A DNA stretch of 64,000 nt, taken from assembly GCA_017510825.1 (NCBI GenBank), contig JAFWMA010000012.1:45-64044 (forward strand), read 5' to 3'. Below, piece after piece: positions 5,187 through 55,566 of the stretch. How positions within the stretch are numbered: the first letter of the stretch is position 1; each line of letters begins with the position of its first letter. Position numbers and translations under genes: made by a program. Below the pieces are notes generated by a model. The model ran no database searches. It had not been told where the DNA came from and saw only the letters and a list, made by a program, of their open reading frames with translations. The stretch comes from Clostridia bacterium (GTDB taxonomy: Bacteria > Bacillota > Clostridia > TANB77 > CAG-508).

Positions 5187-5284
5187 TTTTTTGTGCTTTG
5201 ACTATATTATGAATTATTTTACTATTTATGTTAATCTAAAAGGTATGTGTCTTCGGTGACCTGTGTCCCCGGTGATCCCAAAAT

Positions 5285-5314
5285 GGGCCAAATGCTCCGT
5301 CGCCGGTGACCCAT
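5285..5314 (-). repeat. GC-rich 30-nt dispersed motif, copy a
   Basis: Minus strand ATGGGTCACCGGCGACGGAGCATTTGGCCC. Near-identical copies at 22067-22096 and 54494-54523. Confidence 0.85.
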
Positions 5315-5317
5315 TTA

Positions 5318-6817
5318 CTATTTTAGGGATACTGTACCATCATTTGCTACATTGACCCTTGACCCGGGAATGGAAACTACGACACGGCAAGCGTGACTAG
5401 GGTTGCTCCTGTTACCATCAGAAGCGCATAAGCGACCGGAACCCAAGTAGCCTGAATACACTCTACGCAAATCGAATTCAGCATCGTTCGAGAAAGCATA
5501 AACGCAACGCGAGGCAAGCCAGTAATTAGTGCCACTAGAATTAAATAGCTCCCCTCCTATTCCACTACTTCCGAAATCTCCTAATCTTGTTTTTGTTGTT
5601 TCATTATTCCCTGAATATAAATAAGTTTGGTTTACTGTTAGTGTACTTGCTGTTTTTGATGTGCTATTTATTAAATCTCCACTTATTGGTTCATAGTTAC
5701 TTGGAACTTCTTCATCATACATTGGGTTATTTGTGCTTTTGGCTACATTTCCTTCCGTTCCGTATATTTGTGGAAATTTTGTATTACTTGGTGTATATGT
5801 ATATGTTTTTGTTCCCACTTGGCCATCATTATATGTATCCTCCCTTGATGCTTGCACCATTTCTGTGTCCCAATTATAGCTACTTCCATTCATTCCTTCT
5901 GCTGCTTTTTTTATATCACTTAAATTTAATGCATGTACTCTACTGCTATCTACTCCATATCCACTTTCATTTGCAAACAACTTTGTACTTATTTCATTTA
6001 AATAATATAAACCGTTATCATATCCCCCTGCATCTTTAAATTCTACTGTTGTTCTTGTTGGCTGGCTTACTAGGTTTACTCCATTTTCATCTGCACTTAA
6101 TACATACCATTTTAAACTTTGTGTTCCTAAATTTGCTTGCGTAAATGTTTGTTCTGTTGCTCCTCCGTTTTTGTCACTTGGTATTACTACTTGTGTGCTT
6201 GTTACTGCTGGTTTGTATTCTACTTCCTGCAAGCCACTATGACTATTGATTGCCGAAATTGCTTGATCTCCCCATGGCAATCCTGGGGCAACGTAACTTG
6301 CAACTTCTATGTTTGTATAATTTTGTGGATAACTATATATTGTTTCTCCATTTGAATTTTCGAATCCTTTTACATAGTATATTGTTCTTGATTGCTCATT
6401 AATAATGTAAATATCATTTGATGATGGTGTACTACCTGGTTGAATTTCATAATTTCCTGTACCATAGCTTAGGCTTAACATATATGTTCCTGTTTTTGCG
6501 TATATTTTATTGTTTAGTTCATGTGCATTAATAATATAATATGTATTGTTATCGTTTGGGTTTATTGGTATGTTTTGCATACTACCATTATATATTGGCC
6601 CAATATCAGATATACTATCAGTTTGAGCATAAACTTGAGATACAGTTTCTGATAATATATTTAGATCGTCTTTAAATAGTGATATATCATTTACTTTTAT
6701 TATATTACTAATGTTAATTGCTGTTGGTATACTTATTAATCCTAATATTACTATTGTTATAACTAAAACTACTAATGTTATTCCTTTTTCATTATTTTTC
6801 TTATTATTCTTTTGCAT
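5318..6817 (-). CDS. Exported protein with pilin-like N-terminal anchor and a C-terminal lectin-like module of aberrant composition
   Basis: 499 aa. N-terminus MQKNNKKNNEKGITLVVLVITIVILGLIS (basic region, Gly, hydrophobic helix). C-terminus NYWLASR...RVVVSIP. AAGGGG RBS. The last 168 nt before the final 11 codons are A-depleted. Confidence 0.85.
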   Translation of the reverse strand: MQKNNKKNNEKGITLVVLVITIVILGLISIPTAINISNIIKVNDISLFKDDLNILSETVSQVYAQTDSISDIGPIYNGSMQNIPINPNDNNTYYIINAHELNNKIYAKTGTYMLSLSYGTGNYEIQPGSTPSSNDIYIINEQSRTIYYVKGFENSNGETIYSYPQNYTNIEVASYVAPGLPWGDQAISAINSHSGLQEVEYKPAVTSTQVVIPSDKNGGATEQTFTQANLGTQSLKWYVLSADENGVNLVSQPTRTTVEFKDAGGYDNGLYYLNEISTKLFANESGYGVDSSRVHALNLSDIKKAAEGMNGSSYNWDTEMVQASREDTYNDGQVGTKTYTYTPSNTKFPQIYGTEGNVAKSTNNPMYDEEVPSNYEPISGDLINSTSKTASTLTVNQTYLYSGNNETTKTRLGDFGSSGIGGELFNSSGTNYWLASRCVYAFSNDAEFDLRRVYSGYLGSGRLCASDGNRSNPSHACRVVVSIPGSRVNVANDGTVSLK

Positions 6818-22066: not shown

Positions 22067-22096
22067 TAGGTCAATTGCTCCGTCTCCGGTGACCCA
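22067..22096 (-). repeat. GC-rich 30-nt dispersed motif, copy b
   Basis: Minus strand ATGGGTCACCGGAGACGGAGCAATTGACCT. Confidence 0.85.
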
Positions 22097-22158
22097 TCTG
22101 CTTGATTTTTTCCTTCACTATCAAATGAGAAAAATAGACAAAACTACTATTAGACAAT

Positions 22159-23857: not shown

Positions 23858-25150
23858 TTAATTTTCATTTTCTGTTGTTTGTGTTTCAGGTGCTCCTGTA
23901 TTTGCTGATAGATATTTTTTAGGATCAGTTGGAATCCCATTTTCTCTCACTTCAAAGTGCACATGTGGTCCTGTTGAATTTCCTGTTGATCCCATTTTCA
24001 TTATTTCTTGTCCTTGCGTTACTTGACTACCAACTGATAGCTCTGGAATAAATGCACTTCCATGTCCATATAAGGTTACGACTTTCTTTCCATCTGCAGT
24101 TGTTCCATGGTCTACCATAACAGCATTTCCATATCCACCCATCCATGCATAGTAAATAATAACTCCGTTTGCAGCTGCATAAATTGGATCCCCTGTTCTT
24201 CCACCTATGTCAATTCCATCGTGACTTTTAACAATTCCTTGGATTGGATGCAGTCTACTTCCAAATTGTGAAGTAATATATGAACTAGCAAGTGTTGGCC
24301 AAATCATAATTCCACCACTATATTGTAGTTCATATGTAGATGTTGTAATTGATGATTGTATTAAATTATTAATTTCTTCTTGTTGATTTTTGTAATCATC
24401 AATTTTAGCTATAATACTTTTTTCACTGTCATCTAAACTTGCTTTTTCATTTTCTAGTATTGTTTTTGTATTTGCTAAAATAACGGATTGTTTTTCTGCG
24501 TTATTCTTAGTAATTTTCATGTTTACCTTTTTTTCATTTAACTCATTTGAGAGTTTTGTGATTTGCTGTTTTTGTGAATTTAGCTTTTCAAGTGATTTTG
24601 TATCATATGAGGTAACGGTTTCTATCATAAAATAGTTTGAAATAAACTCTATTACATCCTTTGAGCCTAATAATACATCTAAATAATTTGAAGACCCTTT
24701 TTTATACATTTCAACAAGTCTTTTTCTTAGTAGTTTGTCTTTTCTATTATATTGACTTTCAACAATAGATAATTGCTTTTCTATTTCATTTACTTGTTCT
24801 TGTAGTTGCTGATATTGCCCTTTTACTTCATCAACTTGCTTTTGATATTGAGAAATTTTATCTTGTAAATTTTGTATATTTACTACTTTATTTGATAATT
24901 CACCTTGTACATATGTTAATTGGTTGTTAGCTGTTGCAAGCTGTTCTTGCACTTGATTCTTTTGTTCTTGAAGTGTTAATGTTTTTATGCTATTGTTACT
25001 TGCCTCATTCGTCGTTTCATTCGTCGTTTCATTTGTTGTTTCATTTGTCATTTCATCTGCTGTTTCATTTTCCTCTGCAAAAATAACATTAGAAAAAGAG
25101 AGGATTATTAATATAATCATTGTCGCATAAAATATCTTTTGTTTATTCAT
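23858..25150 (-). CDS. M23 (LytM) peptidase with N-terminal coiled coil, EnvC-like
   Basis: 430 aa. Signal peptide, long Q/E/K coiled coil, C-terminal HDGIDI...GSTGNSTGPHVHFEV. Confidence 0.88.
   Translation of the reverse strand: MNKQKIFYATMIILIILSFSNVIFAEENETADEMTNETTNETTNETTNEASNNSIKTLTLQEQKNQVQEQLATANNQLTYVQGELSNKVVNIQNLQDKISQYQKQVDEVKGQYQQLQEQVNEIEKQLSIVESQYNRKDKLLRKRLVEMYKKGSSNYLDVLLGSKDVIEFISNYFMIETVTSYDTKSLEKLNSQKQQITKLSNELNEKKVNMKITKNNAEKQSVILANTKTILENEKASLDDSEKSIIAKIDDYKNQQEEINNLIQSSITTSTYELQYSGGIMIWPTLASSYITSQFGSRLHPIQGIVKSHDGIDIGGRTGDPIYAAANGVIIYYAWMGGYGNAVMVDHGTTADGKKVVTLYGHGSAFIPELSVGSQVTQGQEIMKMGSTGNSTGPHVHFEVRENGIPTDPKKYLSANTGAPETQTTENEN
25006..25065 (-). repeat. In-frame 12-nt tandem repeat (about 5 units) encoding (T/M)NET repeats
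   Basis: cattcgtcgttt x2, catttgttgttt, catttgtcattt, catctgctgttt. Protein reads MTNETTNETTNETTNEASN. Confidence 0.85.
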
Positions 25151-25184: not shown

Positions 25185-26420
25185 CTATAATGGTAAGTAT
25201 CCTAGTGGATCCACTCTATTTCCTGAACCATTTCCTCCACTTCTTACTTCAAAGTGTAGGTGTGGTCCTGTTGAAACTCCAGTGTTACCTGATACTGCAA
25301 TTTGCTGTCCTCTTGAAACAGTTGAACCAGAACTTACATTAAATGATGATAAATGTCCATAACAAGTGTATAATTCACCTTTAGCTTTATGCCAAATCAT
25401 TATGAAATTTCCATATCCTGACCAGTATGATGCAACAAGTACAACTCCTGCTTCTGCTGCGTAAACTGGTTGATAGCTTGCTCCAATGTCAATGGCTCCA
25501 TGATTTGTTGAAGCCCCTGCTGTTGGAGCAGATCTTCTTCCAAAATAAGATGTTATGTATGAATATGAACAATATCTTGAAGGTAGTGGCCATCCTAATG
25601 CTCCTGATGAATTGTTGGAATATCCACCTCCTCCTGAAGAACTTGATCCCCCTGAAGAACTTGAGTTTGAACTTGAACTTGCCGCTGCTGCGGCTTTTGC
25701 TGCTGCCGCTTGCCTTTTGATTTCTGCATCTGCACTTGCTATTGCATTATTAAATTTTTCTATTTCACTTTGTTTTTCTTTTTCATCAGCACTTAATTGA
25801 CTAACTTTTGCATCTTTCTCTGATTTTTTTTCAGCTAAGACTATATTTTTTGCTTCTTTTTCAGTTTTGACAGTATCTACTTCTGTTTTCTTTTCTTCTA
25901 GTTCTTTTTTATCATTTTCAATAACTGTTTTTTGTTCTGTTATTTCATTTATTAAGTTTGTATCTGCATCGGTTATCTCTTTCACTGCATCATAGCTAGC
26001 AATCATATCTATGTAGTTTGTTGAACCTAGTAATACATCTAAATATTTAATACTTCCGTTTTTGTACATTGCAACAAGCCTTGTTTTTAATAGTTCTTTT
26101 TTTTGTTTTATGTTTTCCTCTTTTTCTTTTATTTCATTTTCTTTGCCTGAAATTGATTCATTAAGCTCATTTAATTGAGCTTCTAATTCACTAACTTCAG
26201 CCTGTATTGCACTTAATTGACTTGTTAATTCTTCGACCTCGTCCATTGTTGATTTTTTTTCACTCTGAATGTTATTTAGCTCAGTCTCAGCTTTGTTTTT
26301 ACCTTGTTGAGCATCACTTTTTTTACTATTCAAAGAGTCGACGCTTTCCGCTAGTACTTTAATATTATATGTACTTATTAATAAAACTATTAGTAAGACA
26401 CACAGTATTTTTTTCCTCAT
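25185..26420 (-). CDS. Second M23 peptidase with coiled coil, EnvC-like paralogue
   Basis: Start at the second ATG (GAAAGGA RBS). Coiled coil, Ala/Ser/Gly linker, HGAIDI...GNTGVSTGPHLHFEV. Confidence 0.88.
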   Translation of the reverse strand: MRKKILCVLLIVLLISTYNIKVLAESVDSLNSKKSDAQQGKNKAETELNNIQSEKKSTMDEVEELTSQLSAIQAEVSELEAQLNELNESISGKENEIKEKEENIKQKKELLKTRLVAMYKNGSIKYLDVLLGSTNYIDMIASYDAVKEITDADTNLINEITEQKTVIENDKKELEEKKTEVDTVKTEKEAKNIVLAEKKSEKDAKVSQLSADEKEKQSEIEKFNNAIASADAEIKRQAAAAKAAAAASSSSNSSSSGGSSSSGGGGYSNNSSGALGWPLPSRYCSYSYITSYFGRRSAPTAGASTNHGAIDIGASYQPVYAAEAGVVLVASYWSGYGNFIMIWHKAKGELYTCYGHLSSFNVSSGSTVSRGQQIAVSGNTGVSTGPHLHFEVRSGGNGSGNRVDPLGYLPL

Positions 26421-26517
26421 CTTAATATCCTTTCTCATTTTTCACTATGTCTATGTTTTAAAAAATTTGAATATTTATTCATTTATTTTTTTAATTGTTT
26501 TTTGTCAAGCTGTAAAA

Positions 26518-32741: not shown

Positions 32742-32767
32742 AAAAAATAGAGTTTTTCAACTCTATT
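32742..32767 (-). terminator. Terminator ending the surface-protein cluster
   Basis: Minus strand AATAGAGTTgaaaAACTCTATTTTTTG. Confidence 0.6.
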
Positions 32768-33000
32768 TAATTTAGTATATTTCTATCAAAATTTTCAGTC
32801 ATTTGATCTACTTCATTTGATTCTTCTAGTTTGTCTGTGTACAAGGCATTTATCATTTCCTCCGTTTGTTCTGTAGGATTGTTTTCTTCAAAAAGTAATA
32901 CTGTTGTTCCAGTTAATATCATCATAACAACAATTATTATAACTAAAATAGCTAATGTAATTCCTCTTTCATTTATATTATTTCTTCCCTTGTTTTTCAT
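32767..33000 (-). CDS. 77-aa pilin-like (class III signal-like) mini-protein
   Basis: MKNKGRNNINERGITLAILVIIIVVMMILTG... shares the N-E-[KR]-G-I-T-L motif with 5318-6817. GAAAGGA RBS. Confidence 0.65.
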   Translation of the reverse strand: MKNKGRNNINERGITLAILVIIIVVMMILTGTTVLLFEENNPTEQTEEMINALYTDKLEESNEVDQMTENFDRNILN

Positions 33001-54493: not shown

Positions 54494-54523
54494 GGGTCAA
54501 ATGCTCCGTCCCCAGTGGCCCAT
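54494..54523 (-). repeat. GC-rich 30-nt dispersed motif, copy c (asd-dapA spacer)
   Basis: Minus strand ATGGGCCACTGGGGACGGAGCATTTGACCC. Its ATG overlaps the asd stop as TAATG. Confidence 0.85.
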
Positions 54524-55566
54524 TATTTTTCTAACAATTTTTTCAAAATTTGTATTGCATTTGTTGCAGCTCCTTTTCTAATATTATCTGCAACAATCCA
54601 CAAATTTACTCCAGATTTAACACTTTCATCTCTTCTTATTCTTCCAACATAAACTTCATTATGTCCACTTACTTCTGTTGATATTGGATAAGATTTTTCA
54701 TCTTTTCCATCTATTACTACAATTCCTTCAAAGTTTCTCAATGTTTGTTTTAATTCTTCTAATTCAAAATCTTTTTCAAGTTCAACATTTACACTTTCAC
54801 AATGTGAATTAAATATCGGCACTCTTACTGCAGTTGCTGTAACAGGCAAATCTGCGTGTTTTAAAATCTTTCTTGTTTCATTCACCATTTTCATTTCTTC
54901 TCTTGTATATCCGTTTTCTTCAAATACATCTATATGTGGCAAACAATTGTTGAATATAGGATATGGGAATTTTTTTAAATCATATTGCTCTGAACCTGCA
55001 ATATTAATATTATCAAATTCATCTTTTTTTTCTCTGTAGTTTTCTGTTCCATTTTCTAAGTCTTCTACTCCATATCTTCCTGCTCCTGAGACAGCTTGAT
55101 ATGTTGAATAAACTATTCTTTTAATTATGTATTTATCATCTAGTGCCTTTAAAGGTACCACTGCTTGTATTGTAGAACAATTTGGGTTTGCAATTATTCC
55201 TTTATTATTTGTTATTTCTTCAGGGTTCACTTCTGGCACAACTAGTGGAACATCTTTATCCATTCTAAAAGCATTGCTATTATCAATTACAACACAACCA
55301 TGTTTTGCTGCAATTGGAGAAAATTGCTTTGATGTAGCCCCTCCAGCTGAGAATATTGCATAGTCAATATGCTCGTCAAAAGAATGTTCTGTTAATTCTT
55401 GTACTTCATATTCATTACCAATGAACTTTATTTTTTTTCCTGCAGACCTAGCTGAAGCCATTAATATGTATTCATCAATTGGTAATTTTTCTTCTTCAAG
55501 GACTTTTAAAACTGTTCTGCCAACGACTCCTGTCACGCCTACAACAGCAACTCTAACTTTTTTCAT
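54523..55566 (-). CDS. asd: Aspartate-semialdehyde dehydrogenase
   Basis: 347 aa. VGVTGVVG Rossmann motif, NPNCSTI active-site Cys, QAVSGAG. Confidence 0.93.
   Translation of the reverse strand: MKKVRVAVVGVTGVVGRTVLKVLEEEKLPIDEYILMASARSAGKKIKFIGNEYEVQELTEHSFDEHIDYAIFSAGGATSKQFSPIAAKHGCVVIDNSNAFRMDKDVPLVVPEVNPEEITNNKGIIANPNCSTIQAVVPLKALDDKYIIKRIVYSTYQAVSGAGRYGVEDLENGTENYREKKDEFDNINIAGSEQYDLKKFPYPIFNNCLPHIDVFEENGYTREEMKMVNETRKILKHADLPVTATAVRVPIFNSHCESVNVELEKDFELEELKQTLRNFEGIVVIDGKDEKSYPISTEVSGHNEVYVGRIRRDESVKSGVNLWIVADNIRKGAATNAIQILKKLLEK

Follow-up and report, generated by a model that had tools for sequence, protein, structure and literature searches.

What turns a gene of an AT-rich chromosome, over its last codons, to codon usage that avoids adenine? 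The question is raised by a 64,000-nucleotide stretch of a rumen Clostridia bacterium genome (contig JAFWMA010000012.1), the whole of which is called the window below. Here the minus-strand gene for a 499-aa exported pilin-like protein ends in an adenine-poor block at 5354-5521, which an earlier note on this DNA had read as the variable region (VR) of a diversity-generating retroelement (DGR). In a DGR, a reverse transcriptase (RT) copies the RNA of a template repeat (TR) and misreads the template adenines at random, and the cDNA then overwrites the VR. Targeted hypermutation by such retroelements is known almost entirely from cases in which target, template and enzyme are found together, and on C-type lectin folds. 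We compared the block with the rest of its gene, with related loci and with known DGR systems. The block is probably a genuine DGR-type VR of a target gene, and we infer that retrohoming produced its pattern. It would be either a remote or a recently orphaned VR, on a scaffold that has not been described.

Composition and Codon Use of the Block

The 56 codons running from 5521 down to 5354 encode WLASRCVYAFSNDAEFDLRRVYSGYLGSGRLCASDGNRSNPSHACRVVVSIPGSRV. Adenine makes up 15.5% of the block compared to 44.7% across the remainder of the gene, and the GC content is 52% compared to approximately 31%. Among the minus-strand 168-nt stretches of the window, the block was the lowest in A (z = -4.4), with a tRNA cluster the second most A-poor. 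35 of the 56 codons contained no A, compared to 18.5% of 16,654 codons in the 47 other open reading frames (ORFs), and the block ranked first of 14,513 windows of 56 codons for A-freeness. Codons ending in C were also more frequent, at 19 of 56 (34%) compared to 7.5% in the 47 other ORFs.

The third positions of the 56 codons were A 6, C 19, T 22 and G 9, and 6 of the 11 codons between the block and the stop codon ended in A. The hand counts in the earlier note were thus reproduced exactly. The codon choices that it had called unusual (CGT, CGC, TCG, TCC, GCC and GGC) each made up 1–6% of the synonymous codons elsewhere in the window (Arg CGT 4% and CGC 1%; Ser TCG 2% and TCC 3%; Ala GCC 3%; Gly GGC 6%). 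The stretch YSGYLGSGRLCASDGNRSNPSHAC, described as encoded almost entirely by codons ending in C or T (NNY codons), had 20 NNY codons out of 24. With a length of 168 nt and 33 nt separating its end from the stop codon (TAG, 5318-5320), the block fits the length (approximately 100–170 nt) and the position (the 3′ end of an ORF) of a DGR VR.

Comparison of the Block Across Chromosomal Loci

Approximately 35 close homologues retained YWLASRCVYA and CRVVVSIPGSRVNV..DGTVTLK, with approximately 25 codons in between varying freely. Four DNA copies were compared, from the window and from loci L012, L010 and L057, which represent four different chromosomal loci. 117 positions were invariant across the four copies and 9 of these were A. 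The 51 variable positions displayed a near-uniform base use (A 58, G 64, C 42, T 40), in contrast to a coding strand of 45% A in the genome. A template of the block would be expected to match TGGCTTGCNTCGCGTTGCGTTTATGC ... TGCCGTGTCGTAGTTTCCATTCCCGG, with A permitted at the 51 variable positions. The VR proposed in the earlier note was supported by this comparison, with a scaffold that is kept, all four bases at the variable sites and A avoided at the invariant ones.

The block consists of two scaffold ends that enclose a hypervariable core (Table 1). The scaffold ends (28 + 36 nt) varied at 1 of 64 positions compared to 35 of 132 positions in the flanks (window, L012 and L010; Fisher P = 3e-6), and adding L057 left a single C/T site as the one difference. 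The whole genes from the same three loci were 79–83% identical (differing by 17–21%). When codons for the same amino acid were compared, synonymous changes were found at 1 of 40 codons in the scaffold and at 73 of 365 in the remaining module. A scaffold that is more conserved than its gene points to recent overwriting from near-identical templates. The G+C-rich end of the 3′ scaffold, CCCGGGTCAAGGGTC, is a candidate for the end at which homing is initiated (initiation of mutagenic homing, IMH).

Most of the 21 metagenomic relatives compared, all on AT-rich contigs with an A background of 0.36–0.45, were also A-poor at the position of the block. The fraction of A there was 0.16–0.27 in 16 of them and up to 0.38 in the others.

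Could ordinary diversifying selection on a binding surface, together with an unrelated local codon bias, have produced this pattern with no template mutagenesis? Binding sites are typically rich in Tyr, Ser, Gly, Asn and Asp, and some lineages displayed no more than a modest excess of change in the VR. Selection on the protein does not, however, explain why the scaffold is more conserved than the gene at synonymous sites, nor why T, G and C all occur at the synonymous site at 5390 (three copies read GCT, GCG and GCC). The conserved scaffold residues, moreover, use the rarest codons of the genome (CGT, TCG, GCC, TGC), all of which are A-free. Apart from DGR mutagenesis, we know of no mechanism that selects against A in conserved codons, and we consider an origin by selection and codon bias improbable.

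Structure of the Gene and the Possibility of a Donor

The same protein sequence is recorded as MBR3325082.1 (IKG14_03445) in the metagenome-assembled genome (MAG) of a Clostridia bacterium, and it was present on 17 contigs of ENA and Logan assemblies. No Pfam or NCBIfam family was found for it, with no Pfam match even at E ≤ 1. By eye, its N-terminus is a basic leader with a terminal Gly (MQKNNKKNNEKG) followed by a hydrophobic helix (ITLVVLVITIVILGLISIPTA); residue +5 is Val and the usual Glu is not present. A profile of the family matched pilins of the PDB (geopilin N-terminus, E 0.0036; MshA and PilA weaker), and 48 of the 84 members of the family had PF07963 (N_methyl) at E ≤ 1, in agreement with the pilin-like N-terminus recognized in the earlier note. 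The window protein on its own had no N_methyl match at E ≤ 0.01. No genes for pilus machinery were found in the window.

On sequence comparison, the gene is chimeric, its two parts belonging to different pilin-like families, because the C-terminal part does not match P0018 and does match paralogues elsewhere. P0018 has 81% identity over 36% of the query and the same neighbors as the window gene (ABC/FtsX, a 91-aa ORF, then RecJ and RelA), whereas its C-terminal part differs from the window protein and is of the formylglycine-generating enzyme (FGE) type. P0002 and P0003, which resemble the C-terminal module, reside at other chromosomal loci.

A chimeric gene (185 aa matching P0018 and 314 aa matching paralogues elsewhere) with a block whose 52% GC is foreign to the genome could suggest that the 3′ end was replaced through horizontal gene transfer or gene conversion from a higher-GC donor, with no retroelement involved, as the earlier note had itself put forward as an alternative. 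The recombination junction, however, is near residue 185, away from the block, and the 314-aa module is AT-rich except for its last 168 nt. The same A-poor block also recurs in relatives on equally AT-rich contigs, and a donor would explain neither the specific avoidance of A nor the four-base variability at fixed sites. No donor with the block inside uniformly GC-rich DNA was found in any collection searched. We therefore set this alternative aside as very improbable.

Table 1. Positions in the window of the gene, its modules, the parts of the block and the downstream hairpin, with the settings of related copies and paralogues.
Feature	Position	Strand	Basis or description
Gene for 499-aa exported pilin-like protein	5318..6817	minus	ORF list, translation, exact database match
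Prepilin-type N-terminus, residues 1-33	6719..6817	minus	Profile match to PDB pilin N-termini
N-terminal module, residues 1-185	6263..6817	minus	Common to P0018, the syntenic orthologue in a sister species
C-terminal module, residues 186-499	5321..6262	minus	72–77% identical to P0002 and P0003 over aligned stretches
VR-type block	5354..5521	minus	Composition, codon statistics, four-copy DNA comparison
5′ scaffold of VR (WLASRCVYA)	5494..5521	minus	Almost A-free; one C/T site differs among four copies
Hypervariable core of VR, encoding FSNDAEFDLRRVYSGYLGSGRLCASDGNRSNPSHA	5390..5493	minus	45/104 positions vary (three copies)
3′ scaffold of VR (CRVVVSIPGSRV)	5354..5389	minus	0/36 positions vary; identical in four copies
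Imperfect hairpin past stop codon, AAATGGGTCA-CCG-GCGA-CGG-AGCATT-TGGCCCATTT	5281..5316	minus	DNA fold -8.7 kcal/mol, z = -2.3
L012 copy			Between topA and CmpB gene
L010 copy			Between thioredoxin and rlmN
L057 copy			Upstream of metallophosphoesterase-like gene (called by eye)
P0002			Alone among housekeeping genes, between topoisomerase I and CmpB gene; no RT within DNA examined
P0006			Alone, between thioredoxin and rlmN; no RT within DNA examined
P0008			Alone, between ruvX and rpsJ; no RT within DNA examined
P0003, P0007, P0022, P0025, P0039, P0060			Each alone among housekeeping genes; no RT within DNA examined

Weighing the Variable Region Reading

Several results weigh against a DGR-type VR. 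Third codon positions make up 14 of the 51 variable positions, so that the template would need some NNA codons or the templates would differ between genomes. The hairpin past the stop codon is weak (z = -2.3) and its GCGA loop is outside the published GRNA consensus. No TR was detected in the 64-kb window, where the best non-self match of an A-tolerant ungapped scan and a repeat search was noise, or among 57 loci compared by blastn or by per-locus scans. For an invariant 19-mer, GTDB genomes returned two chance matches, whereas IMG/VR and the JGI metagenomes returned nothing, and GenBank phage records, searched by protein and DNA, gave no match; these collections also lack copies of the VR itself, so the lineage is absent from them and their silence means little. 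Neither Pfam, run on 40 ORFs of the window, nor a motif scan for YxDD after GxxxSQ revealed a DGR RT there, and none was found around 11 related loci, up to 10 kb per side. The block and the protein were identical in nine assemblies from several run series, and the 90% cluster of the protein has one member. Finally, neither of two structural models had a PDB match at E ≤ 0.001, and C-type lectin, FGE, Mtd and TvpA were not among the top 50 PDB matches of either.

The earlier note had likewise seen no second copy of the block, no RT and no avd-like gene in the 64 kb, and no Avd-like gene was found there. When a TR was sought as a spurious ORF, using a profile of the C-terminal 89 aa and a synthetic Asn-rich template peptide, fragments of ordinary members were the sole result, and the short matches of a search of cluster representatives with the last 120 aa were fragments of family members as well. 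None of the 21 metagenomic relatives had a repeat or an RT motif. Four of the examined paralogues came from one sample (ERZ28655101), which indicates that the family is multi-copy and dispersed. In the sister species, at least four paralogues (P0002, P0006, P0008 and P0018) are present in samples SAMN15830014, -19 and -24.

Related Genes and Gene Remnants

The MAG of the window gene contains a second paralogue, P0123 (IKG14_01805), and 5 kb from it is an ORF that matches RVT_1 weakly (L027 16041-16769). This ORF was rejected as a DGR RT, its best match being positions 205-255 of the group II intron maturase TIGR04416. The surrounding DNA (L027 15790-16770, downstream of IKG14_01805) begins with GTGCG, resembling the 5′ end of a group II intron, and the ORF fuses a maturase fragment (around YADD) to an FGE-like C-terminus of which the last ~150 nt are GC-rich and A-poor. 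The genome thus seems to have another VR-like block, of a different kind, within a disrupted gene.

In the sister species, the syntenic gene (L052 11380-11575) has the same N-terminal 180 aa followed by an FGE-type C-terminus rich in NNC codons (TAC AGC TAC ACC AAC GTC ...), and it differs from its cluster mate P0126 mostly in the last 55 residues, which suggests, at the level of sequence, a second class of hypervariable end in the lineage. P0173 (119 aa, 15 contigs) joins what by eye resembles an integrase-type N-terminus to a YWLASRCV...RPLVSL domain, suggesting that a mobile element inserted into a family member in another lineage. The window itself holds, at 32767-33000 (minus strand), a 77-aa ORF that consists of a prepilin-like N-terminus alone (MKNKGRNNINERGITLAILVIIIVVMMIL...). 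Its neighbors are Der and a DUF285 protein, and a related genome (L017) has the full-length paralogue P0022 at this position. The ORF seems to be what is left of a truncated member of the family.

Present Activity and Decay

The invariance of the block had been named in the earlier note as half of what would speak against a VR. The block was indeed invariant, in nine assemblies whose flanks were 99.99–100% identical over 5–17 kb (0–2 SNPs in 16.8 kb). These assemblies are therefore one clone and sample little evolutionary time, and at the consensus level no ongoing diversification was visible among them. Four loci (L031, L033, L034 and L051) considered as proof of activity, on the grounds of near-identical backbones with different VRs, were rejected because they were 80–87% identical overall. 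Several relatives carry decayed copies. In P0123, from the same genome, the codons at the position of the block are ordinary and AT-rich and the A-poor signature is lost, P0022 and P0025 have lost the A-poor composition, and P0008 has point changes in the scaffold. Between P0013 and P0017 the VR differed no more than the backbone. Decayed copies beside A-poor ones are expected once homing stops.

A DGR might thus once have rewritten the block and then been lost from the genome, leaving a fossil VR that is now a fixed coding region. The invariance in nine assemblies and the single-member 90% cluster agree with this, as do the lack of an RT or TR at any related locus examined, the decay of P0123 and of the paralogue reduced to 77 aa, the interruption of an FGE-type VR-like gene of the same genome by a group II intron fragment, and, in another lineage, the P0013 and P0017 comparison, in which the VR was no faster than the backbone. 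On the other side, the scaffold ends still match copies in other genomes although the genes have diverged by 17–21%, the A-poor codons that end in C show no drift in a genome of 28% GC, and the nine assemblies, being a single clone, allow little time for change to be seen. Undrifted codons and identical scaffold ends indicate that the last homing event was recent. We regard a fixed relic as possible, short of an even chance.

For a DGR-type VR, the position of the template can be placed in one of two ways. We lean towards a template elsewhere in the genome, the block being a remote target of an extant element. The template may alternatively have been lost recently, leaving an orphaned VR, which we hold with less conviction.

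Predicted Fold of the C-Terminal Module

The model of residues 186-499 (314 aa) had a mean predicted local distance difference test score (pLDDT) of 97.1 and a predicted template modeling score (pTM) of 0.94, and the model of the last 120 aa had a pLDDT of 86.5. The best PDB match of the 314-aa model by Foldseek was a Thomasclavelia ramosa IgA peptidase (E 6.8e-3; template modeling score, TM, 0.28). Matches in BFVD were weak, the best having E 1.6e-3, and among them was a phage protein annotated DUF6273 (E 0.67, TM about 0.26). DUF6273 has a terminal W-L-R-S ... R-P motif like that of the block, and we treat the match as a lead; DUF6273 was absent from the 25 commonest Pfam families among the 84 family members.

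The C-type-lectin or FGE fold expected in the earlier note was not supported by the two confident models, and an hhalign comparison with the FGE-type C-termini of the sister proteins returned a probability of 0.4%. A profile search of PDB sequences matched pilin N-termini only. The domain family is small, with 77 clusters at E ≤ 0.001 for the last 120 aa among 1.84 billion representatives. Along three long predicted beta-strands and the loop that follows them, variable residues alternate with fixed ones. These models suggest that the scaffold of the VR is a fold without a description as a DGR target.

Downstream Hairpin and Dispersed Motif

DGR targets are reported to need a hairpin with a GC-rich 7–10 bp stem and a GRNA loop, 4–34 bp after the VR (PMC3240598). 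Of the four copies folded, three have a hairpin past the stop codon, and the window hairpin fits this description loosely. Its loop is GCGA in the window and GGGA in L012, and L010/P0006 has a perfect 17-bp hairpin instead (z = -6.3). The window hairpin (5281-5316) overlaps a 34-nt dispersed motif, GGGTCACCGGCGACGGAGCATTTGGCCC, which is also present 3′ of the P0002 and P0003 stop codons and in a degraded form at P0008. The hairpin may serve in target recognition or represent an unrelated element of the intergenic DNA.

Copies of the 34-nt motif (ATGGGYCACYGGNGACGGAGCAWTTGRCC) were located in the window at 5286-5319, 22069-22102 and 54495-54528, and elsewhere in L012 (11161-11180), in L057, where two copies directly follow the stop codon (1487-1489), and in L010 (8521-8550, minus strand). 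Its central four bases vary (GCGA/GAGA/GGGA) between short complementary arms. Two of the sites are away from any VR, one after a tRNA gene and one between asd and dapA. The motif had no match to an Rfam family.

Relation to Known Systems

The closest parallel for targets at a distance is the DGR of Treponema denticola, with TvpA and remote targets (PMC4891356, PMC5758913). Like the system proposed here it is cellular and not phage-borne, and its targets are paralogous surface proteins at dispersed loci, with a C-terminal VR and an adenine-poor scaffold. A single unlinked template serves the VRs in Treponema, while no template or RT was seen here. According to published surveys, the Treponema TR lies beside the RT, with a target beside the cassette and VRs on an FGE-type C-type lectin fold, whereas no lectin fold was detected in the window protein, and the Treponema proteins carry a lipoprotein signal in place of the prepilin-type signal found here. 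Of 372 DGRs surveyed, 45 had non-adjacent targets; for ten of them the distance exceeded 100 kb, Treponema standing at the extreme (PMC5758913). Targets distant from the RT were, by the design of the largest survey of metagenomes and by its own statement, beyond its detection (PMC8144416).

Mtd of the Bordetella phage BPP-1 (PMC3240598) shares a VR in the last ~130–170 nt, AAY-type codons, a G+C-rich 3′ end and a hairpin shortly after the VR. BPP-1 is, however, a phage element with the target beside avd-TR-brt, whereas the window gene is chromosomal with no TR or RT found nearby. The BPP-1 hairpin combines an 8-bp GC stem with a GAAA loop, while that of the window is imperfect, has a GCGA loop, lies ~38 nt past the A-poor block and overlaps a motif that recurs in the genome.

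In Bacteroides, DGRs act on the tip adhesins of type V pili (bioRxiv 10.1101/2024.11.15.621889). These bacteria, too, are gut-associated, and it is again the binding end of proteins associated with pili that is diversified. The pili in question are of type V and belong to Bacteroidota, whereas the window gene encodes an N-terminus of the type IV/type II-secretion prepilin kind in a Gram-positive spore former, and the paper mentions no type IV pili, Clostridia or Firmicutes (bioRxiv 10.1101/2024.11.15.621889). A G-type (GspG) pilin domain is listed once among rare VR-holding proteins (PMC11661182), a precedent for a VR in a protein annotated as having a prepilin-type domain, although this is a table entry from RT-containing cassettes with no family, fold or remote arrangement described. 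In the literature we came across no paper that describes this family, the use of its fold as a DGR scaffold or an all-unlinked set of pilin-like targets.

Other Features of the Window

The window is chromosomal DNA of low-GC, spore-forming Clostridia. The gene has RecJ, RelA/SpoT and an ABC/FtsX transporter as neighbors, and germination, SpoIIP, RNase Y, Der and AddA-type helicase genes lie farther along. A perfect 49-nt inverted repeat with a 17-nt spacer, and a third copy 840 nt off, was found at 182-296 and 1076-1124, the copies bracketing a small holin-like gene (399-770). Contig L001 repeats the first 196 nt of the window 4 kb onward, and assembly L002 ends there, indicating a repeat that breaks assemblies. 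Two paralogous genes in tandem, both for PcsB-like M23 peptidases (23858-25150 and 25185-26438), share 112 nt at 71% identity and adjoin FtsE/FtsX and a CtpB-like S41 protease.

Proposed Mechanism and Significance

If the block is a DGR-type VR, its A-free scaffold codons would survive adenine mutagenesis unchanged, while approximately 25 codons, mostly derived from AAY, would become randomized and keep C or T at the third position. The randomized residues would alternate with fixed ones on a beta-sheet face and a loop at the C-terminal end of a prepilin-type protein, and are likely to give an adhesin, pilus-associated or at the cell surface, a variable surface for binding.

A broader and more speculative proposal, which we consider rather unlikely as a whole, is that a small, undescribed family of prepilin-type surface proteins of gut and rumen Clostridia carries DGR-diversified residues on a scaffold that is neither lectin- nor immunoglobulin-like, with its copies scattered singly between housekeeping genes and all rewritten in trans by one unlinked retroelement. 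If this is true, metagenome surveys that look for targets on the same contig as an RT cannot detect such an arrangement. 

This locus shows, independently of that proposal, that targets of this kind are recognizable from the target side alone, by composition and by comparison of paralogues. The rare domain that carries the block may be a new scaffold that tolerates massive variation and, if the template exists, several pilin-like adhesins would be diversified at once from a single template.

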